A stretch of DNA of 50,058 nt from IMG/VR virus record IMGVR_UViG_3300006153_000006. One strand, 5' to 3'. How positions within the stretch are numbered: the stretch's first letter is position 1; every line of letters begins with the position of its first letter. A program made the translations under genes and the position numbers. This stretch comes from a virus (taxonomy: Duplodnaviria > Heunggongvirae > Uroviricota > Caudoviricetes). The notes below the pieces were generated by a model. That model ran no database searches and had not been told where the DNA came from. It saw only the letters and a list, made by a program, of their open reading frames with translations. Shown here piece after piece: positions 1,299-42,138 of this stretch.

Positions 1299-1327
1299 AG
1301 TATAAGCCCGGGGAAATACATTGTCAA
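1299..1327 (-). promoter_or_regulatory. sigmaA/sigma70 promoter (leftward)
   Basis: Minus strand reads TTGACA-17 bp-TATACT, about 90 bp upstream of the ATG at 1206. Confidence 0.85.
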
Positions 1328-1358
1328 GATAATTTTTCAATTTCTTCCCCATGTCCAT

Positions 1359-1379
1359 CACCGCAAAGGGGCAACCCCC
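1359..1379 (+). repeat. 21-bp hairpin-forming repeat, copy 2
   Basis: Identical to 34-54. Confidence 0.85.
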
Positions 1380-1598
1380 GCCGCCGTGGTGGTGTTGGGT
1401 GGTGGTGACGTTTGCCCAACGTTGCAATTTATCACTATGCCACATAGGGGGGGGTGGTTATGGTATTTTTGCGGCCCTGTTCACAGCAAACCAGATGTAG
1501 TCACTTTTTCTCCCACACACTCCCCAAAATTCCATCGTCTTTCTCCCGCTCGTCCGTTGGCGTGTAGGGGAAGCAAAGTCTCCAGAGGAGTATCGCAG

Positions 1599-1664
1599 GT
1601 TAAGCCATTTACGTGCTGCTGTTCTCACCAGAATGGAGGATCACAACAAAGGAAATGGCTTAAC
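1599..1664. repeat. 12-bp perfect inverted repeat with 42-bp interior
   Basis: GTTAAGCCATTT (1599-1610) / AAATGGCTTAAC (1653-1664). Confidence 0.8.
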
Positions 1665-1714
1665 AACGCAACATCAACTTTGACTGATTTTTCTTCTGAA
1701 AATGCTTGAAAATA

Positions 1715-1730
1715 TTATTTAATTATCTTG
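1715..1730 (-). promoter_or_regulatory. Recurrent 16-bp motif, copy overlapping the -35 box (CAAGATAATTAAATAA on minus strand)
   Basis: 15/16 identical to 42121-42136; related copies at 1768-1783 and 4551-4566; partial copy at 1323-1334. Confidence 0.7.
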
Positions 1731-1756
1731 ACTTTGTAAGCTTTCTATGATATAAT
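1728..1756 (+). promoter_or_regulatory. sigmaA/sigma70 promoter with extended -10 (rightward)
   Basis: TTGACT-17 bp-TATAAT with TG immediately upstream of the -10; RBS AAAAGGAG at 1821-1828 before ATG 1837. Confidence 0.9.
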
Positions 1757-1767
1757 ACAGCTATATC

Positions 1768-1783
1768 GAAGATAACTAAATAG
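1768..1783 (+). promoter_or_regulatory. Recurrent 16-bp motif copy (GAAGATAACTAAATAG) just downstream of the predicted +1
   Basis: 14/16 identical to 42121-42136. Confidence 0.6.
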
Positions 1784-1836
1784 TTCATATTGAGTGTCAC
1801 AGATACTCACCAGTTGAAGTAAAAGGAGTTAGAGCT

Positions 1837-2655
1837 ATGAGCAGCATCATTCAGTTTCCACTGCCACAAGAGAATACCATCGACCTACACGCCGTTCAGT
1901 CCAGCGCTCGAAAGCTGAAGGCTGGTCTCATCTCCCCAGCCATTGAAGATACCACCTGCGAGTTGGCCAGTGAACACACCTCTGAACCCATTAAGAGTAT
2001 GGACGATATCATCCGTGTGTCACAGTACCTCATCGAGAACAAAAGGTACAGGGACAACATGCTCTTCATCGTTGGTATCAACTTCGGTCTTCGCGTCAGC
2101 GATCTGCGTTTGCTCAGGTTCTCCCATATCATCAACGAACAGTTCGCCTTCAAAGACAGCTTTGCTATTCTGGAGAAGAAAACCAAGAACACCAGAAAGC
2201 ATAAGAAGAACCGGTATATCACCATCAATACCGCCGTTGTCGAAGCTGTCACCCTGTACCTTGAGAATACACCCAACGTGAGGTTGAGCGATTACATGTT
2301 CCGGTCTGAGAGCAACCACGGTTCTTCCTCGAACCAACCTCTCCACCGCAACACCATCGATAATATCATGAAGGGTATTGCCGACGACCTCGGCCTTGGC
2401 AATAAGATGTCCACTCACTCTTTGAGAAAAACATTTGCCTATCACCAGATGGTTATGTCTGGCAACGATCCGCGCAAACTGCTTCTTCTCCAAAAGATGT
2501 TTGGTCACTCCACCGCTGCTCAGACACTGGACTATATCGGTATCACCGGCGAGGAGATCGACGAAGCATACCGTAACCTCAACCTGGGAAGCACTACCTG
2601 CAACTACCTTGTGGATAGTTCTCTTCTGGAGAGTACGGAACAGTCTGCCGGTTAA
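1837..2655 (+). CDS. Tyrosine recombinase/integrase family protein (XerC-like catalytic domain)
   Basis: Catalytic motifs GINFGLRVSDL (R), HSLRKTF (H-x-x-R), MFGHS (H) and TLDYIG (Y); 272 aa. Confidence 0.93.
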   Translation: MSSIIQFPLPQENTIDLHAVQSSARKLKAGLISPAIEDTTCELASEHTSEPIKSMDDIIRVSQYLIENKRYRDNMLFIVGINFGLRVSDLRLLRFSHIINEQFAFKDSFAILEKKTKNTRKHKKNRYITINTAVVEAVTLYLENTPNVRLSDYMFRSESNHGSSSNQPLHRNTIDNIMKGIADDLGLGNKMSTHSLRKTFAYHQMVMSGNDPRKLLLLQKMFGHSTAAQTLDYIGITGEEIDEAYRNLNLGSTTCNYLVDSSLLESTEQSAG

Positions 2656-2858
2656 GCCAGACGGAGCGCACCTTGACAACTGAATATCATATATGAGCAT
2701 CTCAATTATGGTCGCTTTGTCTGTCCCCATCGTTTCACTGATGGCAGACAAGGTTGATTTTATCGCCGGCTTTTGCCGGCTGATTTATCCGATCCAAGAT
2801 CAGAATACGAAAGCGGGGGTAAAACAGGGCTCAAAATACGGGCAAAAAAAAGTGGCCT

Positions 2859-2879
2859 TGGTACACTCGGAGTGTACCA
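2859..2879. repeat. 21-bp palindrome TGGTACACTC-G-GAGTGTACCA, with an extra half-site at 3020-3028
   Basis: Perfect 10-bp arms around one base; AGTGTACCA recurs at 3020; AAAGTGCCA occurs at 3057 and 3076. Confidence 0.8.
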
Positions 2880-3141
2880 TTTCAAAAATTAGCCCTTCTG
2901 CCACAATGGTTTCAAGCCCTCGACTTATTAAATATAATAAGAAAAAACAAAGCAGACGATCATAACGTGAAAACCAAGCTATAAAGACCATGTATGGAAA
3001 CGCTGACGCGCGGAAAATTAGTGTACCAAAAAATCTCAGCGCTCTTCAAAAGAACAAAAGTGCCAAAAGACGCCCAAAGTGCCACCATTTACTGTTCTTA
3101 CTGGTGAGAATTGAAACAAGATCGGAGGTGATCCTCCCCAG

Positions 3142-4377
3142 ATGGAACAAAAAAGAAAGAAAATCATGATTGTGGACGCCCGGATGGGACGGGGAAAATC
3201 CTCTGCCGCCATCCAATATATGAACCGATATAAGGGAAGCAAGTGCTTTTTGTACATCACTCCATATCTGACGGAAGTTGATCGAGTGTGTGAGAAGTGT
3301 GACTTTGAGGAACCGGATTGTGATTACACAAGTAAATCCAATCGACTCAAGGCACTGATGAAGAAGCGGTGCAACATCGCCTCCACACATTCCCTCTTTT
3401 CCATTATGGATGAGGAAGCACTATCTCTGGCGAGAGAACAGGGATACAACCTTATTGTGGACGAAAGTCTCTCCGTGATACAGGGCGTCCCCGTATCGCC
3501 GAAGGACAAGCAAATCATAATGACCAACCTTGCCTCTGTTGACGATGCCGGAAGAGTCCATTGGAACGAGGCCGACTACGAAGGCAAGTTTGACGGATAT
3601 AAGGCTATGGCGGATGCGGGAACGCTGTACCACTGCGGTGAAACGATGTATGAGGTCATGAGCCCGGACAGGTTTGAGGTATTTGACGAGATCTATATCC
3701 TGACCTATCTGTTTGACGGGCAGCTCCAGAAAGCCTACTTTGACTTTTTCGGGTTTGAGTACGACATCATTGGCGTGGAGCAGAATGAAGCGGGGTATTT
3801 CTTCTCTGGCAAGCCGGACGCTCCTCCCAATGTAGACTACTCTGAGCTTATCCACATCGTTGGCATGGACGATGGAGCTGACGCCAGGATGAACGCCGTA
3901 GGCAATGGAAGAACGGCTCTGTCAGCTTCGTGGTTCAAGCAGAGAAGCCGCAACAGCGAAGACATAAAAAACCTGCGTGGACATATGAGAAATTTTTTTG
4001 AGCGAAAGGCCAAGAGCTCTGCGGCCCGACGGCTGTGGACAACGTTCAAGGATGCTCGGGAATGGATGTACGGCCCCAAGAACCGATACGCCTCCAGCTT
4101 CCTATCCCTGAATGCCAGGGCGACAAACGCATATAAGGACGCCGACTGCGTCGCCTATCTGGTCAACCGCTTTGTTGACCCGAACATCGCCAAGTTCTTC
4201 GCCGAGAAGGATATCGTGATCGACCCGGAGAAGTTCGCGCTTTCGGAAATGCTCCAGTTTATCTGGAGAAGCGCCATTCGTGAGAACAAGCCGATCAACC
4301 TATACATACCAAGCATGAGGATGCGCTCCCTCCTGTTGGAGTGGATCGAGCAAACAAGCAACGGAGGTAATACATAA
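3142..4377 (+). CDS. P-loop NTPase, SF2 helicase-like (positionally like SPbeta YonV)
   Basis: Walker A DARMGRGKS, motif Ia-like LYITPYLTEV, Walker B NLIVDES, motif VI-like QFIWRSAIR; RBS GGAGG. Confidence 0.8.
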   Translation: MEQKRKKIMIVDARMGRGKSSAAIQYMNRYKGSKCFLYITPYLTEVDRVCEKCDFEEPDCDYTSKSNRLKALMKKRCNIASTHSLFSIMDEEALSLAREQGYNLIVDESLSVIQGVPVSPKDKQIIMTNLASVDDAGRVHWNEADYEGKFDGYKAMADAGTLYHCGETMYEVMSPDRFEVFDEIYILTYLFDGQLQKAYFDFFGFEYDIIGVEQNEAGYFFSGKPDAPPNVDYSELIHIVGMDDGADARMNAVGNGRTALSASWFKQRSRNSEDIKNLRGHMRNFFERKAKSSAARRLWTTFKDAREWMYGPKNRYASSFLSLNARATNAYKDADCVAYLVNRFVDPNIAKFFAEKDIVIDPEKFALSEMLQFIWRSAIRENKPINLYIPSMRMRSLLLEWIEQTSNGGNT

Positions 4378-4542
4378 GTGAGAAAGAAACATGGCTACCC
4401 TGCTCCAGATGGCTTTGAGCAGGATAAGGAAATACTACTATCATACGATTCAAGTGAAGAGGAGACCGAGCGGTTTATCGAGGAGATGCGCTTTGCGTTC
4501 CGCAAAGCATGGTTTGAATACATAGAAGAGTTCGAGTCTTGA
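4378..4542 (+). CDS. Small acidic hypothetical protein (54 aa, GTG start; absent from the ORF track)
   Basis: GGAGGT at 4363-4368; GTG directly after the upstream TAA; reads MRKKHGYPAPDGFEQDKEILLSYDSSEEETERFIEEMRFAFRKAWFEYIEEFES-stop. Confidence 0.7.
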   Translation: MRKKHGYPAPDGFEQDKEILLSYDSSEEETERFIEEMRFAFRKAWFEYIEEFES

Positions 4543-4550
4543 CACACTAT

Positions 4551-4566
4551 CAAGTTAATTAAATAG
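4551..4566 (+). promoter_or_regulatory. Recurrent 16-bp motif copy (CAAGTTAATTAAATAG) immediately before the RNA polymerase RBS
   Basis: 4549-4569 matches 42119-42139 at 19 of 21 positions. Confidence 0.7.
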
Positions 4567-4578
4567 TGAGGTGAGCCA

Positions 4579-7323
4579 ATGGCAAAACAGTTAGCGTGTC
4601 AGAGGTATATCTACAAGATCCGCAGCAGCCGTTTGCGGAAGGCGAAATGGAATCTCACTCTCCCCCTCTCTGAGGCGCGAAGGAACGACGAGCTGATCTC
4701 CCTGGCCGATAGCCAGGTGCTTCGTTGGTTGGATGAACTGAACGGCATCAAAGATGCAGACAGTCAAGCAAGAGAGCTGAAGGCAGAGATCCGTCGTGTC
4801 CGCAAGGAAAGCAACAGTCTGCAAAACAGACGTAAGTTGCGTAAGCTCTACGAGCAGCTCGATGCCCTCCAGTTCAAGCCGGACTATTTGTGCGTCATCA
4901 TGGACAAAGAGAAGGATTATATCCGGGCCTGCCGTGGGTTCAAGATCAACGGCGTCAAGTATCATCGGCTTCTGGGAACGAACGGCGGCGTAAAGAACTC
5001 CACCATCGTCTTTGTCAGTGACCGGCATTCTGCGGAGCTTCGCCGCCGCATCGATAACGGGCGGAACCCGGAGATGGAGCTGGTGGCTGCAAAGTTGGAG
5101 GCATACAAGGCGCTCACTTGCAGCGCATCGAACCCCGTCTCCATGCCACACGGTATTCTGGTCGTGCCGGATTGCGAGACTGAGTTTATCTCAGATATCG
5201 TCTATTTGAATGACGAGGGCGATGGCGAGCCGGTCATGGAGGAGCGGAAGGGCGTGCCTGTCCAGCTTGATGAGTCGGATGGGTACGGCATCATGCTCCC
5301 CTCTCTGGCGGACAGGTGGGCGAAGGAGCTTGGGCTCGACTACCGGCCCAGCGGCGTGAACACCCGGTTTGCCTGGGAGAAGGGTATGGTCTTCTGCTTC
5401 GACTTTCTGGAGTTCGCCGAACAAGTGGCCAAGAGCTACATCGTCAAGGACGCTTGGGGAAATGAAAAAGATATCCGGGATGTGGAGTTGATCCTCACCA
5501 CATCCATGGTCAAGCTGTGGGACAGTTATCCGAGTTGCGAGGAGTATGTCCGGAATTGCATGGAGAACAAATATTCCTTCGGTGTTGCCAAGGTCTGCCC
5601 CAAGGCTTTGGAGTCCGAGCGCAATCTCAATTACCAGTTCATCCAGAGCTATGACTTGAGCGACGAGGATATCGACAGGTTGATTGCCCCGACGATGAAC
5701 GAGATCCGAGATGTGCTTAGCGACGACTGGCGAAAGACCATACTGTTTCTGAAGGGCGCAGGGCTGAATGAAAACAATGTGTGCCGCATCGACAACGATT
5801 ACGCCAAAGCCATCATGATAGACCAGCGTATGATAGACGACCCGTTTGTGCAGAGCGAGCTGTTCTCTCTTATCAAGACGCGGATCAACGAGGCGAAGGT
5901 TGGGGTGGTTAAAGTACACGGAAACTACTCCATCGTATCCGGCGACCCTTATTCCCTATGCCAAAGCATTTTTGGCATGGAGGTTACGGGCATCCTCAAG
6001 GCCGGTGAGATCTATAACGGCTACTGGGTCGATACGGCCTCCCGGCGTCTCGCCTGCTTCCGGGCTCCCATGACCTGTCACAACAACGTGCGTGCGGTCA
6101 TGGTGAACGACAGCGATGAGGCCAGACACTGGTACCGGAACATGGTGGCCTGCACCGTCTTCAACTCTTGGGATACGGCGGCTCACGCCCTGAATGGCAT
6201 GGACAAGGACGGAGACCTGGTTCTGCTCACAGACAACCAAGTGTTGGTAAACAAGCTCCGCCCCCTTCCCGCTTTGATGTGTGTTCAGAGGAAGGCCAAG
6301 AAGCGGATCGTTACAGAGGAGGACGCTATCCGGGCGAATATCAACAGCTTCGGAGATGATATTGGGAAGATCACCAACCGAATCACGGCGATGTTTGAGG
6401 TGCAGTCAAAGTTCAAGCCCGGGAGCCCAGAGTATGAGGAGCTTGACTACCGCATCAAATGCGGTCAACTTTTTCAGCAGAACGCCATCGATAAGGCCAA
6501 GGGTATTATTGCCAAGCCGATGCCACGTTCTTGGCACGACAGGCATTACGCACTTGCCATTGAGGACGTGGAGAAGCGAAAGCTGTACCTTTCCATTTTG
6601 GCCGATAAGAAGCCGTACTTTATGCGGTATATCTACCCAGACCTTGCGAAGCAGTATAACACATACATAAAGAACACCAACAAGAAGGCCAAGCGGCAGT
6701 TCCAGATGACCATCGACGAGCTGCTTGAGCTTGACCACATGAAGTTGGACGACGAGCAGGCGGAGTTCATCCACTATTACACCAAGTGTATGCCTGTGGG
6801 CGTGGGCGACTGTGTGACCAACCGCATCTGCAAACGGTTCGAGGCCGCGTTTGACGGCTATGTGGGTAAGCACAACTCCACGACGGGGTTTGACTACACC
6901 ATCATGAAAAGCGGTGCAGAGTATACCCAAACCCAGTACAGCACCATCCTGCGGCTCTATGAGGATTACACGAAGCGGCTTCACAGTTACGCCGTGTACG
7001 CCGCCAGAGAGCGTGTGGACGCCGATGAGGTCTTGTCCCATATCAGTATGATGAAGCATGAGTTTTCGGAGTCGTGTGGACAGGTATGCTCCAACTCCAC
7101 CACGCTGTGCGACATCATGCTCGATATATGCTACAAGAGGAGCTCCAGCAAACGCTTTGTGTGGAGTATATGCCACAACGAGATCATAGACAATCTGCTC
7201 CGAAACACGGGCGGGGTGATCCACTTCCCTGTTCTGGCGCAGGACGGGGACATCGAGTTCTGCGGAAACCGTTTCGTGCTTTGTGAGAAAGAGATCGGAG
7301 GAAACGAATGGGCATCGTCTTAA
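4579..7323 (+). CDS. yonO: YonO-like single-subunit RNA polymerase (cellular RdRP/double-psi beta-barrel family)
   Basis: 914 aa; catalytic GMDKDGD (DxDGD), SDGYG, FRAP (RxP) and GDPYS motifs recognised from the QDE-1/YonO family; SPbeta-like context. Confidence 0.88.
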   Translation: MAKQLACQRYIYKIRSSRLRKAKWNLTLPLSEARRNDELISLADSQVLRWLDELNGIKDADSQARELKAEIRRVRKESNSLQNRRKLRKLYEQLDALQFKPDYLCVIMDKEKDYIRACRGFKINGVKYHRLLGTNGGVKNSTIVFVSDRHSAELRRRIDNGRNPEMELVAAKLEAYKALTCSASNPVSMPHGILVVPDCETEFISDIVYLNDEGDGEPVMEERKGVPVQLDESDGYGIMLPSLADRWAKELGLDYRPSGVNTRFAWEKGMVFCFDFLEFAEQVAKSYIVKDAWGNEKDIRDVELILTTSMVKLWDSYPSCEEYVRNCMENKYSFGVAKVCPKALESERNLNYQFIQSYDLSDEDIDRLIAPTMNEIRDVLSDDWRKTILFLKGAGLNENNVCRIDNDYAKAIMIDQRMIDDPFVQSELFSLIKTRINEAKVGVVKVHGNYSIVSGDPYSLCQSIFGMEVTGILKAGEIYNGYWVDTASRRLACFRAPMTCHNNVRAVMVNDSDEARHWYRNMVACTVFNSWDTAAHALNGMDKDGDLVLLTDNQVLVNKLRPLPALMCVQRKAKKRIVTEEDAIRANINSFGDDIGKITNRITAMFEVQSKFKPGSPEYEELDYRIKCGQLFQQNAIDKAKGIIAKPMPRSWHDRHYALAIEDVEKRKLYLSILADKKPYFMRYIYPDLAKQYNTYIKNTNKKAKRQFQMTIDELLELDHMKLDDEQAEFIHYYTKCMPVGVGDCVTNRICKRFEAAFDGYVGKHNSTTGFDYTIMKSGAEYTQTQYSTILRLYEDYTKRLHSYAVYAARERVDADEVLSHISMMKHEFSESCGQVCSNSTTLCDIMLDICYKRSSSKRFVWSICHNEIIDNLLRNTGGVIHFPVLAQDGDIEFCGNRFVLCEKEIGGNEWASS

Positions 7324-8090
7324 ATGAACGTGAGTGGGTAGAGGCTGCCATCGCATCCAGGCAGCTTGGTAAGACACCGGCGGAAACGCTCTCCAAGCTG
7401 GCGAGGTATTACTACCATGCGGAAGGGTATAAAAAATCGGATGTGCGAAAGAAGCTGGAGGAGTTCATGCTCCAGTGCGACCCCCACATCGTTCTGGTCA
7501 AGTGGTCGGATCTGCTGGACAGTATCGTGCGGAACGTGAACAAGTATCCACTGATCGAGATAGACGGTATTGATATCACGGAGGCGGAGCTGGAGGTCAT
7601 CGCCTCGCTGAGTGGGGCACTTACCCAGCGCCTGGCTTTTACGCTTTTGTGCATTGCAAAGTATTGGAACACCGCCAACCCCGGAAACCGAAGCTGGGTC
7701 AATACGCCGGACAAGGATATCATGCGTATGGCCAACATCGGAACCTCTATCAAACGGCAGAGCGATATGTTCCACACCCTGAGACAGGCTGGGCTGCTGC
7801 GCTTCAGTAAGAAAGTTGATAGCCTGAACACACAGGTGCGGTTTATCAAGCCGAATAGCCCGGTGAAACTCCACATCAGCGACTTCCGCAATCTGGGCAA
7901 CCAGTACATGATGTATTGCGGCGGGGCATATATGCAGTGCGTCCAGTGCGGGTTGACGGTCAAGAGGCGTGGAAACGCGCAGAAATATTGCCCGGACTGC
8001 GCTGCTGAAATATATCTGAAACAGACGGTGGAATCAACCATGCGGCATAGGGCAGCCAAAGCAAATAACCTCAAAACTGAAAGTGATTGA
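7308..8090 (+). CDS. Hypothetical protein with possible winged HTH and C-terminal zinc ribbon
   Basis: 260 aa; overlaps the RNAP stop by 16 nt; CVQC...YCPDC cysteine pairs. Confidence 0.75.
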   Translation: MGIVLNEREWVEAAIASRQLGKTPAETLSKLARYYYHAEGYKKSDVRKKLEEFMLQCDPHIVLVKWSDLLDSIVRNVNKYPLIEIDGIDITEAELEVIASLSGALTQRLAFTLLCIAKYWNTANPGNRSWVNTPDKDIMRMANIGTSIKRQSDMFHTLRQAGLLRFSKKVDSLNTQVRFIKPNSPVKLHISDFRNLGNQYMMYCGGAYMQCVQCGLTVKRRGNAQKYCPDCAAEIYLKQTVESTMRHRAAKANNLKTESD

Positions 8091-8102
8091 AAACTGAAAT
8101 CA

Positions 8103-8196
8103 CCGCTATCCATTGGCACACAATGGATAGCGGGGAGCGTTATGCAGTCTCTTACTTGAATACAATTATACGTTTTTCTTTTTTTATTGTATTCAA
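8103..8196. promoter_or_regulatory. Two perfect inverted repeats in the AT-rich gap between the RNAP operon and downstream genes
   Basis: 13-bp arms at 8103-8115/8121-8133; 11-bp arms TTGAATACAAT/ATTGTATTCAA at 8156-8166/8186-8196. Confidence 0.6.
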
Positions 8197-8235
8197 AAAA
8201 AATCAAAAAATTTTTGTAGAAAAGGATGATAAAAC

Positions 8236-8421
8236 TTGATTTCCATTTCAAAGGAAGAGAAAAAGGCGGTTCGGGAGAAGTTCCCAAGGGTTCACATCGT
8301 GCGGACGATGAAGCAGTGCTCAAAGCGGCATAGGTACTACATGGAGGAAGCTCCGGGTGCAATGAAGCTGATTCGTCAGATGCGTGGGATCGAGGAGCCG
8401 TCACGAAAAAGGGGGGCGTGA
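8236..8421 (+). CDS. Small basic hypothetical protein
   Basis: 61 aa; TTG start after AAAGGATG; abuts the next gene. Confidence 0.65.
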   Translation: MISISKEEKKAVREKFPRVHIVRTMKQCSKRHRYYMEEAPGAMKLIRQMRGIEEPSRKRGA

Positions 8422-8425
8422 TCGA

Positions 8426-9643: not shown

Positions 9644-9654
9644 GCCAAACGCAC

Positions 9655-9680
9655 GCCGCCCTGTGAAATACCGGGGCGGC
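9655..9680 (+). terminator. GC-rich hairpin between the phosphoesterase gene and the tRNA (terminator or processing site)
   Basis: GCCGCCCTG/CGGGGCGGC 9-bp stem; no U tract. Confidence 0.45.
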
Positions 9681-17298: not shown

Positions 17299-17330
17299 TA
17301 TTTCAATAAAACTATAAGGAGGAATTAGCT

Positions 17331-33319: not shown

Positions 33320-36300
33320 GTGTATCTGAATTATTCCAAAATCAAAAACGACGGGTTCGGAAAACCGGAAGCTCCCCTTCTCCGATTGCAGACAAAGTAT
33401 GGAAGAAACATCGGGATCCTGAGCAATACATCCAACCTGAAAATCACGGTGAAATACTCTGAGCCCAGCGAGATCTCCTTTGACGTGGCAGCCTATCATG
33501 ACGGAACGCCGACGCCCTTTTACAACGGCATCGTCGGGTATAAGCGCGTGTACACGGAGAACTACGGCGTCTATCTTCTGATGAACCCGGAGACAGAGGG
33601 TGACGGGGTCGAGGAGGTCAAACACGTCAAGGGCTACTCCATTGAAAAGGAGCTGGAAAGTAAGTCGTTCTTCCTTGAGGAGGGGACATTCAACTTCTGG
33701 AACCCGGCCTCCCCCACCAGCACCATCGTGGGACGCATCCTTGAGATCGCAACAGGGTGGAGCGTTGGGTATGTCTCCCCCGCTCTGATTGGGCGGTATC
33801 GGACATTTGACCAGTATGACGAGAATCTGATGAGCTTTGTGTACAATACGGCCCCGGAGAAGTATCGGTGCGTCTTCGTGTTCGACCCATACGAGAAGAC
33901 CATCAGTGCCTATGATGCGGACGAGGCGAAGGACACGCTTGGTATCTATCTCGATTACGACAATCTGGTGACGAGCCTTTCGATCTCAGAGCGAAGCGAC
34001 GAGTTGGTTACCGCACTGCGGGCGTACGGCGCGGACGAGCTCAGCGTCCGGGAGGTCAACCCTATCGGCACGGAGTGGCAGTATGACCTGACATACTTCA
34101 TTGAGAACGGAGATATCCCGGATGACCTTGCAAAGAAATGGATCTCCTGGCAGGCCGCTATCACGGCAAACCGGGAGCGGTATCGTGGCCTTGTGGCATT
34201 GAAGTCCTCCGCACTCGCGCAGATGATGGCGCAGAACGCCGCGTTGACAGACCTACAGGCAGACCTGGACGACCTGACCGGACAGCAGAGCCAGACGATT
34301 CAGGGGCTTGCCCTTGAAATCACAGACGCAGGCAGAGAGTATCAGCAGGGTTTGCTGGACGACATCAACCAAAAAATCAAGGCAAAGAAGCAGGAGATCT
34401 CCACAAAGAAGGCTGAGATCGCAGAGATCGAGGAACGGATGGGTACGGGAAGCCCAAACTCCTATCAGACGAAAATCAACGAGATCAACGCGGCGCTGGC
34501 TATCGACAAGTATTTTTCGGCAAGCGAGCTGGAAACGCTACGGCACTTCTTCATTGAGGACGACATCACAGAAGACAGCTTCGTGGCCACAGACGTGAAT
34601 GTCAACATATCCGGCAAAAGCTATTCTTTCCCGAGTCGTGAGGTCAGCGTCAGCGGAAGCGAAATCTCCGCCATCGACATGACGGACGGCTACCGCACGC
34701 AGATGTACACTCTGGCCGGAGGCGGGCTGAACATCAAGGGTACACTGACCTGCGACATTATCCGAGGCACGCTGGAAGTATCCAAGGACAATTCCTTTGT
34801 GTTGAGCGTCTACGGCGGCGATATCTCTACGGGTGGCGAGGGGTCGTCAAGCGGTTCGCTGACGCTGACGGGAACCATGTCCGGCTTTACGAGCGATATC
34901 AGGGCTGTGGACGAGGGAGAGAAAGACTTGCACATTATTGTTCACAAGGGTACGAAGCTGTCCTTTGTTACCGGCGATATCTCCATGTACCTAACGGCTG
35001 ACATCAGCGACTATCAGGCGCTTAATGTGGAGATGGAGCTCTTTGACTATGCGAAGAATGTTCTCTGCGACCTGGCGACGCCAACCTATGAGTTCTCCGT
35101 CGATACGGGCAATTTTATCTTTGCCAAAGAGTTTGAGCGCTTCAAGAACGAGCTGGAGCTGGGAAGCGGTATTCATCTGCGCATCTCAAAAAGTAGAGTT
35201 ATCACCCCCATTCTCATTGAGATCGGGCTTGACTTTGAAAATTGGAGCAACCTGTCTCTTACATTTTCCAACCGGTTCAAACTGCACGACAGCGTAAACA
35301 CGCTCAAGGATATTCTGGAAACATCCTACTCCGCCGGGAGAAACCTGGATGCCTCGAAATACATTTACGGGAAGACAGTGGAACAGGCTACGGCGGCAAG
35401 CAGGTTTATGAGCTCCTCTCTGGACGCCGCCGTAAACTCCATTGTTGGGGCAAAGGACGAGACCGTCCGCATTGACGGCGGCGGTATCCATGTGGGCGGC
35501 GAGGACGGCAAGTATCAGCTGCGCGTGATCGGTAGCATGATCGCCATGACGGACGATGGCTGGGAGCACGCCAAGCTCGCCATCGGGCGTTTCGCCTCGA
35601 AGGAGACGGGCGAATACTGGGGCGTCAACGCCGAGGTCATCGGCGGCAAGCTGATCGTAGGCAACAATCTGATAATCGAAAACGTGAACGATATGGGGGT
35701 CATGCAGTTCAAGGTGGATGCCGGGGGCGCATGGCTCAATAACGCAACGATGTGCGTGCAGTGCGACGACGGAGGCAAGATCCTGATCGACCCACGGTAC
35801 GGCATCATGGCGGGCACAGGAGATCTCTACACCGTTGATGGGACTACCGTAAAGCCAAACTTTATAGGAGCTGGCGGGAAGATCATCACGGACAGCTACG
35901 GCATCCCGCAGAATGCGAACTTCTATCTGGACGCAAGAACTGGCAAGGCGTACTTCCGTGGCGACGGCGTATTCAACGGAACGATCCACGCAAGAGACGG
36001 TGACTTCAGCGGAACCATCAAAGCATCTATCCTGGAGGGAACGCTTACTGGCAGTCCAACGGGCGGCGGCGCGATCAAAGGCGTGTCGTTGGATATTGGC
36101 GACGGCGCTTTTGTCGTTAATCAGAACGGCGACGTCCACATTGAACGCGGCACCATCAGCTGGGGCGCCGTGACAGGCACAGACGAGATAGACGATAGGA
36201 TCTCTTCCGCGCAGAGCAGGGCGGATAGCGCATACTCCTATGCGAGTAGAGCGTCCTCTTCCGCAGCCGATGCCAAGGATCTGGCAAGGAAAATTGCAAA

Positions 36301-36619
36301 CGGTGAGTACAGTAACGGAACTTTTATCAACGGCAGAGAGATATACAGCCCGACAATCTTTGCGAATACGTTTAAGGTCATTCCGGAAACAGAAGCATCA
36401 GCCGATTCGTGGACTGGTGGATACGAGCTGTGGGGATATTACGGAAACACACTGTACGATATGTTAAAGATCAGTTACTTTCAAGGCGATGCACCGTTCG
36501 TTGTTTTTTCAAGTCCATGCGGCGCATACGCAAGTTGGGATTTCCGCGTATCAAGGTTTTATGGAAGAATTGATTTCTCAGGCGCAAATGTAAGCGGGAT
36601 CTATGCGAAGTTCAAATAA
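33320..36619 (+). CDS. Tail-associated (Tal/spike-like) protein
   Basis: 1099 aa after Dit; coiled-coil middle region; Gly-rich beta-helix-like C-terminal part (GDFSGTIKAS). Confidence 0.75.
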   Translation: MYLNYSKIKNDGFGKPEAPLLRLQTKYGRNIGILSNTSNLKITVKYSEPSEISFDVAAYHDGTPTPFYNGIVGYKRVYTENYGVYLLMNPETEGDGVEEVKHVKGYSIEKELESKSFFLEEGTFNFWNPASPTSTIVGRILEIATGWSVGYVSPALIGRYRTFDQYDENLMSFVYNTAPEKYRCVFVFDPYEKTISAYDADEAKDTLGIYLDYDNLVTSLSISERSDELVTALRAYGADELSVREVNPIGTEWQYDLTYFIENGDIPDDLAKKWISWQAAITANRERYRGLVALKSSALAQMMAQNAALTDLQADLDDLTGQQSQTIQGLALEITDAGREYQQGLLDDINQKIKAKKQEISTKKAEIAEIEERMGTGSPNSYQTKINEINAALAIDKYFSASELETLRHFFIEDDITEDSFVATDVNVNISGKSYSFPSREVSVSGSEISAIDMTDGYRTQMYTLAGGGLNIKGTLTCDIIRGTLEVSKDNSFVLSVYGGDISTGGEGSSSGSLTLTGTMSGFTSDIRAVDEGEKDLHIIVHKGTKLSFVTGDISMYLTADISDYQALNVEMELFDYAKNVLCDLATPTYEFSVDTGNFIFAKEFERFKNELELGSGIHLRISKSRVITPILIEIGLDFENWSNLSLTFSNRFKLHDSVNTLKDILETSYSAGRNLDASKYIYGKTVEQATAASRFMSSSLDAAVNSIVGAKDETVRIDGGGIHVGGEDGKYQLRVIGSMIAMTDDGWEHAKLAIGRFASKETGEYWGVNAEVIGGKLIVGNNLIIENVNDMGVMQFKVDAGGAWLNNATMCVQCDDGGKILIDPRYGIMAGTGDLYTVDGTTVKPNFIGAGGKIITDSYGIPQNANFYLDARTGKAYFRGDGVFNGTIHARDGDFSGTIKASILEGTLTGSPTGGGAIKGVSLDIGDGAFVVNQNGDVHIERGTISWGAVTGTDEIDDRISSAQSRADSAYSYASRASSSAADAKDLARKIANGEYSNGTFINGREIYSPTIFANTFKVIPETEASADSWTGGYELWGYYGNTLYDMLKISYFQGDAPFVVFSSPCGAYASWDFRVSRFYGRIDFSGANVSGIYAKFK

Positions 36620-36629
36620 CAATTTGCAA

Positions 36630-36647
36630 GGGGTTGCCCCTTTGCGG
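36630..36647 (-). repeat. Inverted 18-bp copy of the left-end hairpin repeat (CCGCAAAGGGGCAACCCC)
   Basis: Reverse complement is identical to the core of 34-54 and 1359-1379; intergenic. Confidence 0.75.
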
Positions 36648-36663
36648 AGAAAGGAGAGGAAAT

Positions 36664-37317
36664 ATGCCAGACGATAAAACAAAAGCTTCCGGCGCTTCTG
36701 CCGGAACCGCAGAAGAAAAACCGTTAGACCCACCTACAAGGACGGGCTCCATGTCGATCGTCAAGGCCGGGTCGGACTATGTCACCGTCCGTATCTCCTC
36801 CATCTCCAAGGCAACGGGCTATGAGATCGTGTGGCGGGAAGCGTCCGTCACAGATATCGAGGGAACACTGGATGTGGGTTCCTCCGGGAGATACACCATC
36901 GATGGACTTACCCCGGAGACAGACTATGTGTTCAACTACCGAGGTTACAATGACGACGGCATCGGGCCGTTCATGTCCACGGGCAGAACAGCGACGACGC
37001 TTCCGAACAGGCCGGACGATTGGGAGTGGTGGACGAGAATAGAAAGCGGAGGTGACATCGATCTGTCCGCAGACGAATGGAATACGTTTTGCGAGAGGAT
37101 CAATGAGTTCAGAGCCTATAGCGGTTTCAGCAAATACGCCTTTACAACTGTTGAGACGGGTGATTATATCTACGCCTCCACAGTCAACCGGGCCGTGTCG
37201 GCAATACGGGCTATGAACCCGCCGGTGACACCGCCCAGACAGGTATCTTCCGGTTCGAGCGATATAACGGCTGCGTTTTTCTATGGCCTCAGTAACGCTT
37301 TGAACAGCATCGAGTGA
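36664..37317 (+). CDS. Fibronectin type III domain-containing tail protein
   Basis: GYEIVWRE...YTIDGLTPETDYVFNYRGYN is FN3-like; ATG 36664 follows GGAGAGG. Confidence 0.78.
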   Translation: MPDDKTKASGASAGTAEEKPLDPPTRTGSMSIVKAGSDYVTVRISSISKATGYEIVWREASVTDIEGTLDVGSSGRYTIDGLTPETDYVFNYRGYNDDGIGPFMSTGRTATTLPNRPDDWEWWTRIESGGDIDLSADEWNTFCERINEFRAYSGFSKYAFTTVETGDYIYASTVNRAVSAIRAMNPPVTPPRQVSSGSSDITAAFFYGLSNALNSIE

Positions 37318-37331
37318 AAGGATGGTCAATC

Positions 37332-37511
37332 ATGAATCATATTGAAATCGCCCAGGCGATTGCCGGGTATCACAATCTTCTGTCCGAAATTTCCGTGCGC
37401 GGCGAGGACGTTCTGCGGATGCGGGACGCACTTGTCGGCATGAGAAACCTGGCTGCACAGCTTGTTCAGGAGACCAACGAACAGCAGACAGCCGAGGCAG
37501 AGGAGAAATAA
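37332..37511 (+). CDS. Small helical hypothetical protein
   Basis: 59 aa from ATG 37332 after AAAGGATGG. Confidence 0.6.
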   Translation: MNHIEIAQAIAGYHNLLSEISVRGEDVLRMRDALVGMRNLAAQLVQETNEQQTAEAEEK

Positions 37512-37527
37512 ACAGGGGGTGTGCGTT

Positions 37528-37902
37528 ATGGGTAGTTGCCCCTTTGATTACTACACCCTCCCTACCGTTGAATTTGTTGGCGGAGAAACACAGGAGCTTT
37601 TGTTCCATGTGTACTCCAATATTGGGAAAAGGCCGTTCAGTCTTGTAAGCTGTACCGCGAACTTTTCTGTTGTGAGCTATCTCAACAAGACGGGCAAGCC
37701 TATCATCTCAAAGCAGATGGAGATCAAAACTGCGGGCGAGGTGGACAATATTCTGGCCGTTACCATAGACCCGAAGGAGACGGTGGGGATGAACGGGAAG
37801 TACATCTATCAGATCATTATCAAGGATATTTCCGGGGACGTGGAAGTTCCGAAGCAGGGAATATTCCTTGTAGTGAATAACATCAACAAGAGCTTCATTT
37901 AA
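37528..37902 (+). CDS. BppU-N-like baseplate/fibre accessory protein
   Basis: 124 aa beta-sandwich pattern (DPKETVGMNGKYIYQIII); ATG 37528 after AGGGGG. Confidence 0.55.
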   Translation: MGSCPFDYYTLPTVEFVGGETQELLFHVYSNIGKRPFSLVSCTANFSVVSYLNKTGKPIISKQMEIKTAGEVDNILAVTIDPKETVGMNGKYIYQIIIKDISGDVEVPKQGIFLVVNNINKSFI

Positions 37903-37922
37903 CCAGTAAGGAGGAACGAACT

Positions 37923-38330
37923 ATGAACACGACATATTTTCTGAACTGTGTCAGCGGTAATGTCTTTGGTTCCAAGAAGACCCCTGCCCTCCCGGAGCAG
38001 TATTACATCGGGCTCAGCACAAGTGCACCAGCTATGGACGGCACCGGCGTAACCGAGCCGAGCGCTTCCGCAGGGTACAAGCGTGTGCTGCTTGACAGTC
38101 TCAGCGAGCCTGCCAGTGGCGTTGTCTCAAACGAGAACGACGTCAACTTTGAGGAAAGCACCGCAAACTGGGGCACTGTCACCCACTTTGTCATTTATGA
38201 CGCAGAGGCCGTGGGAGGCGGGAACCTGCTGATGTACGGCACGCTGTCCACCCCACGTTCTGTGGAGACCGCCACTGTGATGACCATCAAGGCAGGCTAC
38301 CTGAAGCTGTCTGCTCAGAACCCATCCTGA
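37923..38330 (+). CDS. Phage tail fibre-associated protein
   Basis: YIGLSTSAP...GYKRV...WGTVTHFVIYDA...GGNLLMYG, a pattern common in phage tail genes. Confidence 0.7.
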   Translation: MNTTYFLNCVSGNVFGSKKTPALPEQYYIGLSTSAPAMDGTGVTEPSASAGYKRVLLDSLSEPASGVVSNENDVNFEESTANWGTVTHFVIYDAEAVGGGNLLMYGTLSTPRSVETATVMTIKAGYLKLSAQNPS

Positions 38331-38350
38331 CATTTTGGAGGTAGTCGCAG

Positions 38351-39283
38351 ATGAAAGAGTTTGATATCTTTCTCAACAAACGTCTGACAGAATGCGACAT
38401 CATTGTTTCGGCTATCCCATACCGTGATGGGCTTACTATCGTCAACCGCATGATCCTGGAGTGCTGCCTGGAAGCCTACCTGCTTCACAAGTTTGTTGCG
38501 GTGCAGGCTGGGTCTGAATTGACAAGTCATATTGACCGGATGATAAAGACCTGCCATGAGAAGCTGAACTTTGGGCAGGAGCTGCGGGCAGAAGCAGAAT
38601 TTTCCTCCGCGTCCAAGATCGCGCCGATCAGCGCTGAAATCGAGCTTGGAGCAGGCCAAGTCTCGCTGTTCGCAAACACCTATGAGCAGGCAGTCTCTAA
38701 CATTCTGCTGGCGATAGACCCGTTTAAGCTGACGCTGAAAAAGTATCTGGGCGGAAGCTCCTCCGGTATCGCCGTGAACACAGAGCTTCGTAATGTGCTG
38801 AAGCGCAGTATTGAGCGGTTTGAGCGCGGCGTGACATTTGGGGCTGCCGTGGACGGTTTGGCCGAACAGAATTTTGAACGGGCCACGGCAGATATCGAGG
38901 TGGACGCAGAACTGAAGAATCTGCTTTACAGGGTATACCACTCCGGCGAAGCCATGATGGACATTGCCGCCGTTGTGGAAAGCATACAGCTGCACCGGAT
39001 TCTCGGCATTGCGGAGGCCGGGATAGAGCTCGACGCCGACATTGGCGGTGGAGCTGTCACCAAGAAATTTCTTACAGCCGAACATGGTATCGATCTGCTG
39101 ACAGAGGTGACCGAAACCTTTACACAATATATGAAGCCGGAGATGGTCACCGTCGCGCTCGACACGAGCGCAAGTGCGATCCTCCGCAGGTTTCGCAAGG
39201 TATCTGAGGTAGACCCGCTCAGTCTTGCGAGCATTGATACTATGACACTCGACGAGCTTGACTATGTTGTTTTGTCAGGATGA
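38351..39283 (+). CDS. Hypothetical tail-region protein
   Basis: 310-aa ORF with RBS GGAGGT. Confidence 0.7.
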   Translation: MKEFDIFLNKRLTECDIIVSAIPYRDGLTIVNRMILECCLEAYLLHKFVAVQAGSELTSHIDRMIKTCHEKLNFGQELRAEAEFSSASKIAPISAEIELGAGQVSLFANTYEQAVSNILLAIDPFKLTLKKYLGGSSSGIAVNTELRNVLKRSIERFERGVTFGAAVDGLAEQNFERATADIEVDAELKNLLYRVYHSGEAMMDIAAVVESIQLHRILGIAEAGIELDADIGGGAVTKKFLTAEHGIDLLTEVTETFTQYMKPEMVTVALDTSASAILRRFRKVSEVDPLSLASIDTMTLDELDYVVLSG

Positions 39284-39299
39284 GAAGGGGGTAATGTAA

Positions 39300-39521
39300 A
39301 TGGGTAAATCTCCAAAGTTGGGGTTGCATCTCATTCCTGAGACAACAACCGAAAACTTTTTGGATTGGCGGCTGAAGGAAAATGGGGAAACCGATGATTC
39401 CAACATGATGATCCTGGACGCCGCTGTTGGAGCCGTCAAGGATTGGAAGGACGGTATCGACAGCACCCCCATCACATGGGGGATGTTGAAAAACGGTCTC
39501 ACAAGACCACCGAGTGCGTAA
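39300..39521 (+). CDS. Small tail-fibre-like protein
   Basis: 73 aa; resembles fibre N-terminal anchor segments (SNMMILDAAVG). Confidence 0.55.
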   Translation: MGKSPKLGLHLIPETTTENFLDWRLKENGETDDSNMMILDAAVGAVKDWKDGIDSTPITWGMLKNGLTRPPSA

Positions 39522-39536
39522 GGAGGTGAAAGAAGA

Positions 39537-40151
39537 ATGTACGCAATCAAAATGGAGGACGATAAAAGTCTGACCACGACGATCCACTCTACGATCTACC
39601 AGGGGGAAAAGAATGCAGATACGCTGGTGTTTGTTGTTCCTGTAATGTATGAGGACACGAACCTGGCCGACTGTACGCTCCTGCTGCGGTATGTACTGCC
39701 GAACGGTAAGGGTTACTCTGAGGAGCTGGCTATGTATCCTATCCCACGCAACAAGGACTATTATCAATTCCGCCTGAACGCCACTTCTCATTTTACGGAG
39801 AACGTAGGCGATATCGACCTGTGGCTGACGGCGATCAATTTTGAAGACGATGTTGTTCTTCACACCGATACAACAACAGTGACGATCACGCAGCATGTCA
39901 AAATTGAAAACCATCTGCCGCCTGAGCGAGTGGATCAGCTGGATAAACTGGCAGCAAAGGTGGAAGGTATGGAGGGCGGTTTTGTCAACAACCTGAAGTA
40001 CGACAAGGATCAGGAAACACTCCAGCTGACGCACAATGGCGCACCCGTTGGAGACGTGATCGACGTCACGACCATGGTGAACCATGACGACGTGATCTAT
40101 TTCCCGGATGGCGAACCGGAGAGCGACCCCGACGCCGTTATCTATTTCTGA
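39537..40151 (+). CDS. BppU-N-like protein
   Basis: IYQGEKNADTLVFVVP motif; RBS AAGGAGGTG. Confidence 0.55.
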   Translation: MYAIKMEDDKSLTTTIHSTIYQGEKNADTLVFVVPVMYEDTNLADCTLLLRYVLPNGKGYSEELAMYPIPRNKDYYQFRLNATSHFTENVGDIDLWLTAINFEDDVVLHTDTTTVTITQHVKIENHLPPERVDQLDKLAAKVEGMEGGFVNNLKYDKDQETLQLTHNGAPVGDVIDVTTMVNHDDVIYFPDGEPESDPDAVIYF

Positions 40152-40168
40152 GGAAGGAGGGGTTCAAG

Positions 40169-40900
40169 ATGGGTATCAGAGTTTCCTATGGCGACAGGAG
40201 CGGTATCAACGCAGCCATCGAGAGCGGTGTCATCCCCGAGGACAGCTTTATCATCGGCACATACGGTGACGATGAAGCAGAGCTGATGTTCTACGATAAG
40301 CATACCAACATTCGCCATATCGTAGCGCAGACCCGGTTTGACAGCAAGGATGAGGCCATCGCGTACGCAATCTCCCACAGCGAAGTCGGGAACACCGTCA
40401 CGGTTCTGGAGGACAGCGTTTATACGGCCTATGTAGTGCAGCCGGACTTCTCCCTGAGAGAACTTGGCATGGGCAAGTTCCGCCCGGAGACTATCGAGGA
40501 GCTCGTGAGTGGCGTTGCCAAGCTGAACGAAGATGTGACGGAAATCAAGGGCAATATCGACGGCTTGAAAACGGAGACGGATGCACTCGCTGACGAAGTG
40601 ACAGCCGTGGAGAGTGCCGTTAAAAGCCTTGAAGCAAGCTCGCATATGCACGAAAACAAGGCGCTTCTTGACTCCATCACTGAGGAGCGCATGATTAAAT
40701 GGGATACCGGTATCGCAGACACCGAGCGTCTCCCGGTTGCCACAGACGAGGATAAAGGCGCCGTACGCAGTACAACGAAGGAAAACGGCGTGTCTGTGGC
40801 AGAAGATGGGACAATGGAGGTAAACTCCATGTCCGTTGATAAACTCATGCAGGAAGTCGGCAGCACCATTATCATGCGCTGCGGCTCTGCCACCGAGTGA
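40169..40900 (+). CDS. Hypothetical tail fibre-related protein
   Basis: 243 aa; central coiled coil, LPVATDEDKGAV repeat-like motif, C-terminal CGSAT. Confidence 0.6.
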   Translation: MGIRVSYGDRSGINAAIESGVIPEDSFIIGTYGDDEAELMFYDKHTNIRHIVAQTRFDSKDEAIAYAISHSEVGNTVTVLEDSVYTAYVVQPDFSLRELGMGKFRPETIEELVSGVAKLNEDVTEIKGNIDGLKTETDALADEVTAVESAVKSLEASSHMHENKALLDSITEERMIKWDTGIADTERLPVATDEDKGAVRSTTKENGVSVAEDGTMEVNSMSVDKLMQEVGSTIIMRCGSATE

Positions 40901-40931
40901 TCGGTGAATAAAAACACAGGAGGAATGTACT

Positions 40932-42119
40932 ATGAGCGAGAAAATTTTTGACATTAGGGCGCAGCTGAAGGGCGATACCCTTGAAAACTGGAATGCGGCG
41001 AACCCCGTTCTGTTGGCGAACGAACTCGCCATCGTGACAGTCCCGGCAGAAAGCGGCGCAGTCGCCCAGGAGCCCGCCATTCTTTTCAAGGTAGGCAACG
41101 GTACTGACGCATTCAAGGCGCTGCCCTACGTCTCCGCCAAGGCCGCCGATGTGTACGACTGGGCAAAGGCGGCTGCCAAGCCAACCTACAGTGCGAGCGA
41201 GATCTCCGGCCTTGCTGATTATATCTCCGGCGAGATCCAGGATACCAACACCCAGTATAAGCTGGAGCAGGACGCCACTGACGGCCACATCCTGAAGCTG
41301 TACAGCAAGGCCGTGGGCGCCACTGACTGGACTGTGGAGGCTACCATCACCACTGTGGACACTGAGTACGACGATACCGCTCTGGCCGGTCGTGTGACCG
41401 CTCTGGAGACCCTTGTTGGTTCTACCGCAGTAGCTACCCAGATCGCCAACGCCATTGCCGCTCTGAACCTGGCTGAAACCTATGCCACAAAGAACGAGCT
41501 TAAGGCTGTGTCTGATCTGGTTGGCGCATTGCCCGAGGGCGCAACAGCCACCACCGTGGTGGGCTATGTGGATGAGAAGGCCGCTGCCGCTGAGTACGAC
41601 GATACCGAAGTGAAGGCCAGCATCCAGGCCAACACCACCGCCATTGCCACCCTGAACGGCACCGGCGAGGGCAGCGTGGACAAGAAGGTGGCCGACGCCG
41701 TGGCCGCTATCGTGGCCGATGCTCCTGAGGCCTACGACACCCTGAAGGAGATCTCCGACTGGATCAGCAGCCACGCAGAGGACGCCTCCGCCATGAACTC
41801 CCAGATCAACACCAACAAGACCGACATCGCTGCCCTGAAGGCACTGGTGGGCACTCTGCCCGAAACCGCCGAGGCACAGACCGTTGTAGACTATATCTCC
41901 GAGGTTGTGGGCGTGGAGCTGGGTAAGCTGGGCGATCTGGCCTCCAAGGATAAGGTGGCCAAGACTGACCTTGAAGACGCTCTGAAAACCGAGATCGATG
42001 GCAAGGCAAACGATGCCGACCTGGCGGCTGTCGCCAAGAGCGGCAAAATTGCCGACCTGGTTCAGGACGCAGGCAGCTATATCGTCCTGAACTGCGGCAG
42101 CGCAACTACCGTTATTTAA
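40932..42119 (+). CDS. Fibre protein with hyaluronidase/Mtd N-terminal-like domain and long coiled coil
   Basis: DTLENWNAANPVLLANEL...FKVGNG...FKALPY; Ala/Thr-rich heptads; strong codon bias. Confidence 0.75.
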   Translation: MSEKIFDIRAQLKGDTLENWNAANPVLLANELAIVTVPAESGAVAQEPAILFKVGNGTDAFKALPYVSAKAADVYDWAKAAAKPTYSASEISGLADYISGEIQDTNTQYKLEQDATDGHILKLYSKAVGATDWTVEATITTVDTEYDDTALAGRVTALETLVGSTAVATQIANAIAALNLAETYATKNELKAVSDLVGALPEGATATTVVGYVDEKAAAAEYDDTEVKASIQANTTAIATLNGTGEGSVDKKVADAVAAIVADAPEAYDTLKEISDWISSHAEDASAMNSQINTNKTDIAALKALVGTLPETAEAQTVVDYISEVVGVELGKLGDLASKDKVAKTDLEDALKTEIDGKANDADLAAVAKSGKIADLVQDAGSYIVLNCGSATTVI

Positions 42120-42138
42120 TCAAGATAATTAAATAGCG
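42110..42138. promoter_or_regulatory. 11-7-11 inverted-repeat site containing the recurrent motif
   Basis: CGTTATTTAAT-CAAGATA-ATTAAATAGCG; arms are 10/11 complementary. Confidence 0.6.

Follow-up and report, generated by a model that had tools for sequence, protein, structure and literature searches.

Organization of the locus

The DNA analysed here, 50,058 nucleotides (nt) of the Caudoviricetes record IMGVR_UViG_3300006153_000006 ("the window" below means this whole stretch), carries a 16-nt motif that recurs in front of genes, and the nature of this motif is the subject of the present analysis. The window is the last 50 kb, on the reverse strand, of a viral record of 114,030 bp that closes on itself through a 49-bp overlap. 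A simple gene call based on codon usage shows a control region at about 1.3-1.8 kb that sends out two divergent arms. The rightward arm (1.8-51 kb) encodes a 272-amino-acid (aa) tyrosine recombinase, an ATPase, a 914-aa YonO-type RNA polymerase and its 260-aa partner, another recombinase, the terminase, and capsid and tail proteins. Genes for nucleotide metabolism and replication are found on the leftward arm. The best two sigma70-type promoters within the first 8 kb are the rightward and the leftward one listed in Table 1. The record is that of a temperate phage of gut Clostridia, judged temperate because it encodes a cI/LexA-type repressor (HTH_3 and Peptidase_S24 domains) and, on the left arm, a Tn916-type integrase, and because one relative is classed as a provirus.

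Table 1. Motif copies, promoters, genes and a hairpin of the window (window coordinates)
Feature	Position	Strand	Remarks	Basis
Motif, full copy	1715-1730	-	CAAGATAATTAAATAA; leftward, over the -35 box of the rightward sigma70 early promoter	
Motif, variant copy	1768-1783	+	GAAGATAACTAAATAG; begins 11 nt past the -10 box of the early promoter; the family-wide "early" position	
Motif, copy	4551-4566	+	Immediately 5' of the ribosome site of the YonO-type polymerase gene	
Motif, copy	42121-42136	+	Just past the stop codon of a 395-aa gene of the tail-fibre region; AC at +19/+20	
Motif, half copy	1323-1334	+	GTCAAGATAATT, the reverse complement of AATTATCTTGAC; runs into the -35 box of the leftward promoter (1327-1299)	Inverted repeat I1
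Motif, decayed copy	17304-17319	+	CAATAAAACTATAAGG; before the capsid-module gene, where relatives have a full copy about 20 nt 5' of the start codon	
Early promoter, host type	1728-1756	+	TTGACT-17-TGATATAAT (-10 TATAAT), extended TG	Sequence reading
Leftward promoter, host type	1299-1327	-	TTGACA-17-TATACT; drives the gene of the 341-aa sigma-like protein	Sequence reading
341-aa protein	181-1206	-	C-terminal domain of sigma region-4 type; alternative candidate reader of the motif	Predicted structure
Tyrosine recombinase	1837-2655	+	272 aa, full catalytic set; first gene past the early promoter	
YonO-type RNA polymerase	4579-7323	+	Single chain, 914 aa, Pfam RdRP PF05183; favoured candidate reader of the motif	
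260-aa protein	7308-8090	+	Cys-rich; gene overlaps the polymerase stop codon	
Hairpin	42149-42187	+	Strong (-30.5 kcal); separates the 42121 copy from the Mtd_N gene; no U-run on the plus strand	

Copies of the motif and their significance

The pattern SAAGWTAAYTAAATAR matches the window at exactly four places, starting at 1715, 1768, 4551 and 42121, and all copies of the motif lie in intergenic DNA. These are the four full copies given in a preliminary description of the window, made from its sequence alone, and the half copy that it placed at 1323 is also present. Its finer claims hold on the sequence as well: 4549-4569 and 42119-42139 are identical at 19 of 21 positions, 1716-1731 is the exact reverse complement of 42120-42135, and AATTATCTTGAC runs into the -35 boxes of both divergent promoters. 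One point has to be corrected, as the copies at 1715 and 1768 do not face each other across the recombinase promoter; read 5' to 3' they point apart, back to back, with 53 bp from centre to centre and 37 bp between the arms.

The preliminary description also considered a chance origin unlikely, without computing it, and the statistics bear this out. No match to SAAGWTAAYTAAATAR arose in 100 dinucleotide-preserving shuffles of the window, and allowing two mismatches added no further window match (0.15 expected). When the genome of 114 kb was scanned with a weight matrix trained on relatives alone, the phage's own genome being excluded, five matches scored 10 bits or more, as opposed to 0.23 in shuffles, and three scored 15 bits or more, as opposed to 0.03. 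Iterative widening of the matrix was dropped because it drifted into generic UP-element and -35 sequences. Outside the window, a DnaG-like primase gene is preceded by a fifth full copy (G000:C1:47268-47283, or 66776-66791 on the minus strand in window orientation), and the matrix located a sixth, degenerate copy at window-oriented position 71659. The copy at 42121 stands 67 nt 5' of an Mtd_N-domain gene, and copies at similar distances are found in two relatives (G017 and G018). The hairpin at 42149-42187 has its T-run on the opposite strand and would terminate antisense, not sense, transcription.

Conservation in related phages

Relatives were collected through the polymerase gene, which yielded 79 loci with 46-76% polymerase identity, clade A comprising those at about 66-76%. 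The motif is a family-wide feature: it stands at fixed positions in front of genes in about 60 related phages. In clade A, copies stand past the -10 box of the early promoter and immediately 5' of the polymerase ribosome site. The first capsid-module gene and, on the other arm, the DnaG-like primase gene are each preceded by a copy at a distance of about 20 nt; further copies occur in the tail-fibre region and in front of an HD-domain or 91-aa gene. The early copy starts 8-12 nt past TGnTATAAT in every relative that has the region, and the polymerase-gene copy keeps its syntenic position in almost all relatives whose polymerase identity is about 62% or more. The density is 3-7 copies per genome of 110-130 kb. 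Alignment of the copies gives an extended consensus, tATCAAsAtAATTAAATAr-nnt-AC, which is longer than 16 nt and in which the core is followed by three variable bases and then A/G-C; among 29 unique sites, 23 have A at +19 and 22 have C at +20.

At the early -10 and polymerase-gene positions, more distant clades carry other sequences. Clade B has CAAnACAAyTATAAAG and clade C has AAACCAnCnGTTTTyC-n-GATTG; further variants are CAATCAATnnATAAGAGCA and a form containing ATAGCATA. As judged from these alignments, the motif appears to change in concert at the same positions as the polymerase diverges, which implies a trans-acting reader that co-evolves with it.

Outside the family, an exact scan of viral contigs with the 16-mer (the commonest variant) returned at least 117 stretches. 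Of 78 new loci examined, 22 belonged to the family and 56 carried no family gene; the 15 of these 56 that were inspected lie on contigs of 22-35% G+C and lack the flanks of the motif. Three family records (G021-G023, loci L248-L265) keep two left-arm copies and are without the polymerase arm; the right-arm proteins of G001, including polymerase, capsid and tail proteins, have almost no match in them. Their replication arm is 97.8% identical in nucleotide sequence, over 31.7 kb, to that of G005, a polymerase-bearing record from the same sample. They are either recent modular recombinants or single-sample assembly chimeras, and because of this identity they decide nothing about the motif in phages without a polymerase.

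Orientation and context of the copies

The 19 intergenic copies of four complete genomes all point in the direction of the downstream gene. A looser pattern, applied to another five genomes, gave 15 further matches, 11 of them 19-53 nt before a co-oriented open reading frame (ORF); the exceptions are reversed copies over sigma70 -35 boxes, one probable chance match and one copy without a nearby ORF. At least four distinct sites (nine copies, some of them orthologous) begin within about 10 nt past a hairpin of -15 to -24.5 kcal, in most cases with a T-run, which gives the order terminator, motif, ribosome site, gene; in G017 the tail-fibre-region copy directly abuts a hairpin of -23.9 kcal. Sigma70 promoter scores upstream of the early copies are 10.5-13, compared with 3-8.5 for the other copies (95th and 99th percentiles of random sequence, 7.5 and 9.0). 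Only the early copies, then, have a sigma70 promoter upstream, and those before the polymerase, capsid, primase and tail-fibre genes have none. Therefore, there is no host promoter at the internal copies to regulate.

The existence of the motif, its conservation and synteny, and its orientation and context are direct observations. Orientation and context are features of a self-sufficient promoter and are awkward for an operator of host promoters, a roadblock or an RNA element. We favour the view that the motif is a compact, orientation-dependent, phage-specific promoter at which RNA starts, with a probability of roughly 0.55. This preference is based on the co-orientation of the copies, their distance of 19-53 nt from start codons, the copies behind terminators, the lack of internal sigma70 promoters and the concerted change among clades. 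The preliminary description had proposed a YonO-type promoter element, a regulon operator or recombinase binding sites; the first of these is now preferred, the second is the principal competitor and the third is disfavoured.

Part of the same context could be expected if the motif acted in RNA, as a leader element 5' of ribosome sites serving as a translational enhancer or operator, a processing site or a 5' stabilizer. Most copies end 1-14 nt ahead of a Shine-Dalgarno sequence, the early copy would be nucleotides +3 to +20 of the sigma70 transcript, and stretches of the form CAAG(n)...(n)CTTG can pair around the core in several lineages, with differing stems (CAAGAT/ATCTTG, CAAGG/CCTTG and CAAGT/ACTTG). 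However, the copies behind terminators would be poorly transcribed, the reversed copies, lying 5' of sigma70 start sites, do not occur in RNA in the right sense, the copy at 1715 is 509 nt away from the next gene, and the pairing stem is found neither in the polymerase, capsid and primase copies nor in the early copy of this genome. We consider a role in RNA very unlikely.

Still less probable is the idea that a tyrosine recombinase uses the copies as recombination sites, with the inverted pair at 1715 and 1768 bounding an invertible early promoter of the fimS type. Inverted copies do surround a promoter beside the gene of a small, catalytically complete tyrosine recombinase of FimB/FimE-like size. 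Against this, the motif does not consist of two inverted half-sites with a spacer of 6-8 bp between them, some relatives retain the motif although they have no recombinase gene at its usual locus, and co-oriented copies dispersed over 114 kb would be expected to promote deletions. At the early promoter, most relatives possess one copy only, clade B has direct and not inverted copies, and in about 25 relatives inspected the early promoter occurs in one orientation only, which sets the arrangement apart from fimS. The 37 bp between the arms are, moreover, very short for synapsis. We also rejected an invertible promoter as such, sigmaE- or sigmaK-type promoters, a lambda Q-type pause site, and parS or arm-type sites; a sigmaA -10 box within the motif was discarded since GATAAT/CATAAT is not conserved.

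Promoter or regulator site

The most serious alternative is that the motif is the site of a phage regulator, acting as an operator at sigma70 promoters (overlapping the -35 box or located at +3 to +20) and as an orientation-dependent roadblock inside operons. Several observations weigh against a promoter, and a number of them point in this direction. The distance from the sigma70 -10 box to the early copy is constant, at 8-12 nt, in all clades. Two sigma70 promoters, the early one and that of a MazF-like gene, are overlapped at the -35 box by reversed full copies, both here and in the closest relatives (at the early promoter, L083, L007 and L009), and AATTATCTTGACA is common to three sigma70 promoters of this genome, the third of which lies outside the window. 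Two copies flank the early promoter here and also in clade B, where the second is a direct copy just upstream of the -35 box; in clade C, a copy stands 9 nt past the sigma70 promoter of the MazF-like gene, and the clade C variant is partly palindromic. The copy at 4551 ends 1 nt before the ribosome site in this genome, and a transcript starting at +19 would therefore lack part of that site. Both here and in G006, the copy at the capsid module is decayed. Finally, the polymerase gene served to sample all relatives, so that motif and polymerase co-occur by construction, and the SPbeta gap that contains a YonO start has no match to the motif (see below).

Other facts agree with a regulator site. 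The phage is temperate, with a cI/LexA-type repressor, integrases and one provirus-class relative, and the first gene past the regulated promoter is a tyrosine recombinase that is highly conserved (60-79% identity). In SPbeta, a repressor with a tyrosine-recombinase fold binds a 15-bp repeated element that is located before yonP, which itself precedes yonO (PMC10516654). The variable geometry of the motif around host promoters suggests occlusion, which a polymerase sitting on its own promoter and a repressor could both bring about.

However, the internal copies have no sigma70 promoter to control, and several copies are right behind terminators, where a roadblock would be redundant. The number of copies is also lower than in stoperator systems; L5-type stoperators number 20-30 per 50 kb. 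Moreover, the core of the motif is invariant in about 60 relatives, and two DNA-binding proteins that might act on it vary. Between genomes with the same motif, the cI/LexA-type repressors share only about 52% identity and have different recognition helices (helix 3); an operator of the cI/LexA type was rejected because the motif is asymmetric and invariant while the repressor and its recognition helix are not constant. The recognition helix of the helix-turn-helix (HTH) in the 341-aa protein likewise varies among relatives. The recombinase, unlike MrpR, the SPbeta repressor, is catalytically complete: aligned to XerC-like and integrase chains, its Arg, Lys, His-x-x-Arg, His and Tyr positions are all occupied. 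Its gene is absent at the usual locus in L019, L030 and L052, all of which keep the early copy, L019 retaining the polymerase-gene copy as well. We regard a regulator site as possible, though rather unlikely.

The gene of the cI/LexA-type repressor lies outside the window, next to the MazF/PemK-like gene (L131:2959-3756, minus strand, and L131:4472-4906, plus strand; window-oriented 72304-73101 and 71154-71588, respectively). The latter gene has its own promoter, TTGACA-17-TATAAT.

Candidate readers of the motif

As a promoter, the motif would most likely be read by the YonO-type polymerase; taken over all explanations, we would put this tentative assignment at somewhat less than even odds. 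The 260-aa protein is conserved beside the polymerase in all relatives, and no other proteins encoded nearby combine universal occurrence with steady conservation as these two do. The pair is favoured by elimination of the other candidates, not by demonstration. A comparison of the 260-aa protein with PDB sequences gave no informative match; it is possible that this protein is a specificity factor. The fuller proposal, that the motif is the cognate promoter of the single-chain, two-barrel YonO-type polymerase working together with its 260-aa Zn partner, is marginally more tentative than the assignment to the polymerase as such. The rest of the probability given to a promoter is left to the host core enzyme with the 341-aa sigma-like protein, or to another factor.

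The 341-aa protein would, as a reader, imply a cascade in which host sigma leads to a phage sigma, which in turn serves the polymerase and late genes. Predicted structures lend this some weight. A model built from 14 sequences was unusable (predicted local distance difference test, pLDDT, 50.6), and we used one built from 53 sequences (pLDDT 75.6), in which the C-terminal domain has the fold of sigma region 4 (Z 8-9.4, root-mean-square deviation 1.2-3 A). Nearly all top rows of a Foldseek search with this model were full-length sigma factors, albeit weak ones (E of 0.01 or more), and inspection by eye finds stretches like sigma regions 2.1-2.4 that hardly vary within the family. With its own sigma70 promoter and a terminator at 163-138, the gene forms a self-contained unit, and clades B and C, whose motifs differ, have analogous fast-diverging genes in its place. 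The AT-rich core of the motif can also be likened to late promoters that consist of a -10 element only, such as TATAAATA of T4, which gp55 and gp33 use with the host core enzyme. The likeness extends to the AT-rich -10-only element itself (TTAAATA here), the lack of a -35 box and the proximity of ribosome sites; it is a resemblance of sequence only, and the motif, in contrast to the T4 element, also needs the upstream tATCAA block.

The 341-aa protein could be a very diverged phage sigma factor, as far as the models go. However, no Pfam or PDB sequence match for sigma region 2 was obtained with it, and the fold assignment of its N-terminal part is weak, the protein being helical. No conserved -35-like element lies 17 bp upstream of the motif, and a homologue was not found in cultured polymerase-bearing phages. 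The 66-kb record G009 shows neither the recombinase nor a gene of the 341-aa type, yet it keeps four syntenic copies of the motif. A promoter read by host core enzyme with this protein is thus unlikely, more so than the regulator site discussed above.

G009 (locus L032) is without the usual control region altogether, that is, without the 341-aa gene, stem element, early promoter and recombinase; at 8300-8600 of L032, the ATPase-polymerase operon directly abuts leftward small genes. The stem element of the other relatives is found here at 1599-1664, upstream of the early promoter. It has the form GTTAAGCCnTTT ... AAAnGGCTTAAC and is kept in all clade A relatives, with a 12-bp stem in which three pairs covary and a loop that varies and is about 42 nt long. 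A scan with Rfam of positions 1-5000, this element included, and of the surroundings of the sixth motif copy returned no credible match. The entire 341-aa cassette, with promoter and terminator, is enclosed by a perfect 21-bp direct repeat, CACCGCAAAGGGGCAACCCCC, at 34-54 and 1359-1379, the first copy of which falls within the 49-bp end overlap of the record.

Two features of the polymerase gene itself deserve mention. Its start codon is ATG in this genome (4579) and CTG, ATA or ATT in most of the loci L006-L083, behind a good GAGGTGA ribosome site, which suggests that the polymerase is translated weakly on purpose. In six loci (L068-L071, L076 and L079) and in the Enterocloster phage records H3-H6 and H8, the polymerase match extends over about 3.8 kb instead of 2.7 kb or falls into two to three pieces, suggesting an intron or intein within the gene.

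Relation to known systems

Compared with known phage-polymerase promoters, the motif resembles the class II-III promoters of T7, T3 and SP6, which are likewise single conserved blocks of about 20 bp, strictly co-oriented with genes. Shared too are the position in short gaps before replication and structural genes, often behind terminators, and the restriction to a phage group, with a sequence that changes with the group. The enzyme here, however, is a two-barrel chain of the YonO/RdRP type and not of the T7 type, and the motif is known from sequence alone. In addition, copies also stand before the early operon and the polymerase gene, which is not the case in T7.

YonO-type polymerases are, to our knowledge, the smallest known relatives of cellular RNA polymerases, and we know of no one who has defined how they recognize DNA. 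The study of the SPbeta enzyme reported a single YonO-dependent start, upstream of yonK, and left the promoter undefined (PMC5467207). The yonK-yonN gap, in which the primers used for primer extension bracket this start (PMC5467207), contains no match to the motif with up to two mismatches; this says little, because the two polymerases are only 26% identical. In the Enterocloster phage PMBT24, whose polymerase is 38% identical, the polymerase gene lies behind a sigma70 promoter and the motif-like sequence CATCACAAGAAATATT. Whether CATCACAAGAAATATT recurs in PMBT24 cannot be judged, given that its genome has 33% G+C.

The SPBRE sites of SPbeta, which are bound by the recombinase-fold repressor MrpR (PMC10516654), offer a parallel to a regulator site. 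In both cases an asymmetric element of 15-16 bp is repeated between genes of a large temperate phage that encodes a polymerase of the YonO type. The polymerase operon has one copy in front of it in each case, and a protein with a tyrosine-recombinase fold is encoded nearby. The two systems differ in that MrpR has lost most of its catalytic residues while the 272-aa protein keeps all of them, in that SPBRE sites are in sigmaA promoter regions while here only the early and reversed copies are, and in the ordinary cI/LexA-type repressor that this phage also carries. The stoperators of gp71 of L5, in cluster A mycobacteriophages, are similar as well, being asymmetric sites oriented with transcription in short gaps of both arms, one of them overlapping the early promoter. 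However, the sites here are far fewer (3-7 per genome, not tens) and several are just past terminators; nor was a matching conserved repressor identified, as the cI-type repressor varies and the motif does not.

Proposed role and implications

As a promoter, the motif would span roughly -22 to +1, with tATCAA as the element recognized in duplex DNA and the invariant AT-rich block AATTAAATA as the region that melts. Transcription would start at the conserved A (or G) 4-5 nt beyond this block; the conservation of A/G at +19 is only suggestive of a start site. In the scheme we propose, the host RNA polymerase would fire the sigma70-type early promoter at 1728-1756, leading to synthesis of the YonO-type polymerase, probably along with the 260-aa Zn partner. 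The YonO machinery would then initiate at the copies past the early promoter and before the primase, capsid-module and tail-fibre genes. The copy before the polymerase's own gene would provide positive feedback, and occupation of the copies that overlap or abut host-type sigma70 promoters would also shut these promoters off.

If this is correct, the motif would be the first promoter consensus for the family of YonO-type enzymes, with a start at the conserved A. It would place a positive-feedback copy ahead of a poorly translated polymerase gene, together with hand-over copies that silence host-type early promoters. The consensus, its natural variants in clades A-E, the decayed copies and the partner protein would make promoter recognition by these enzymes testable in vitro and with reporters. 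Should the motif instead be the site of a regulator, it would represent stoperator-like silencing outside the mycobacteriophages, which would also be worth knowing. The motif may further serve as an annotation marker for transcription units in the widespread temperate phages of 100-130 kb that inhabit gut Clostridia.

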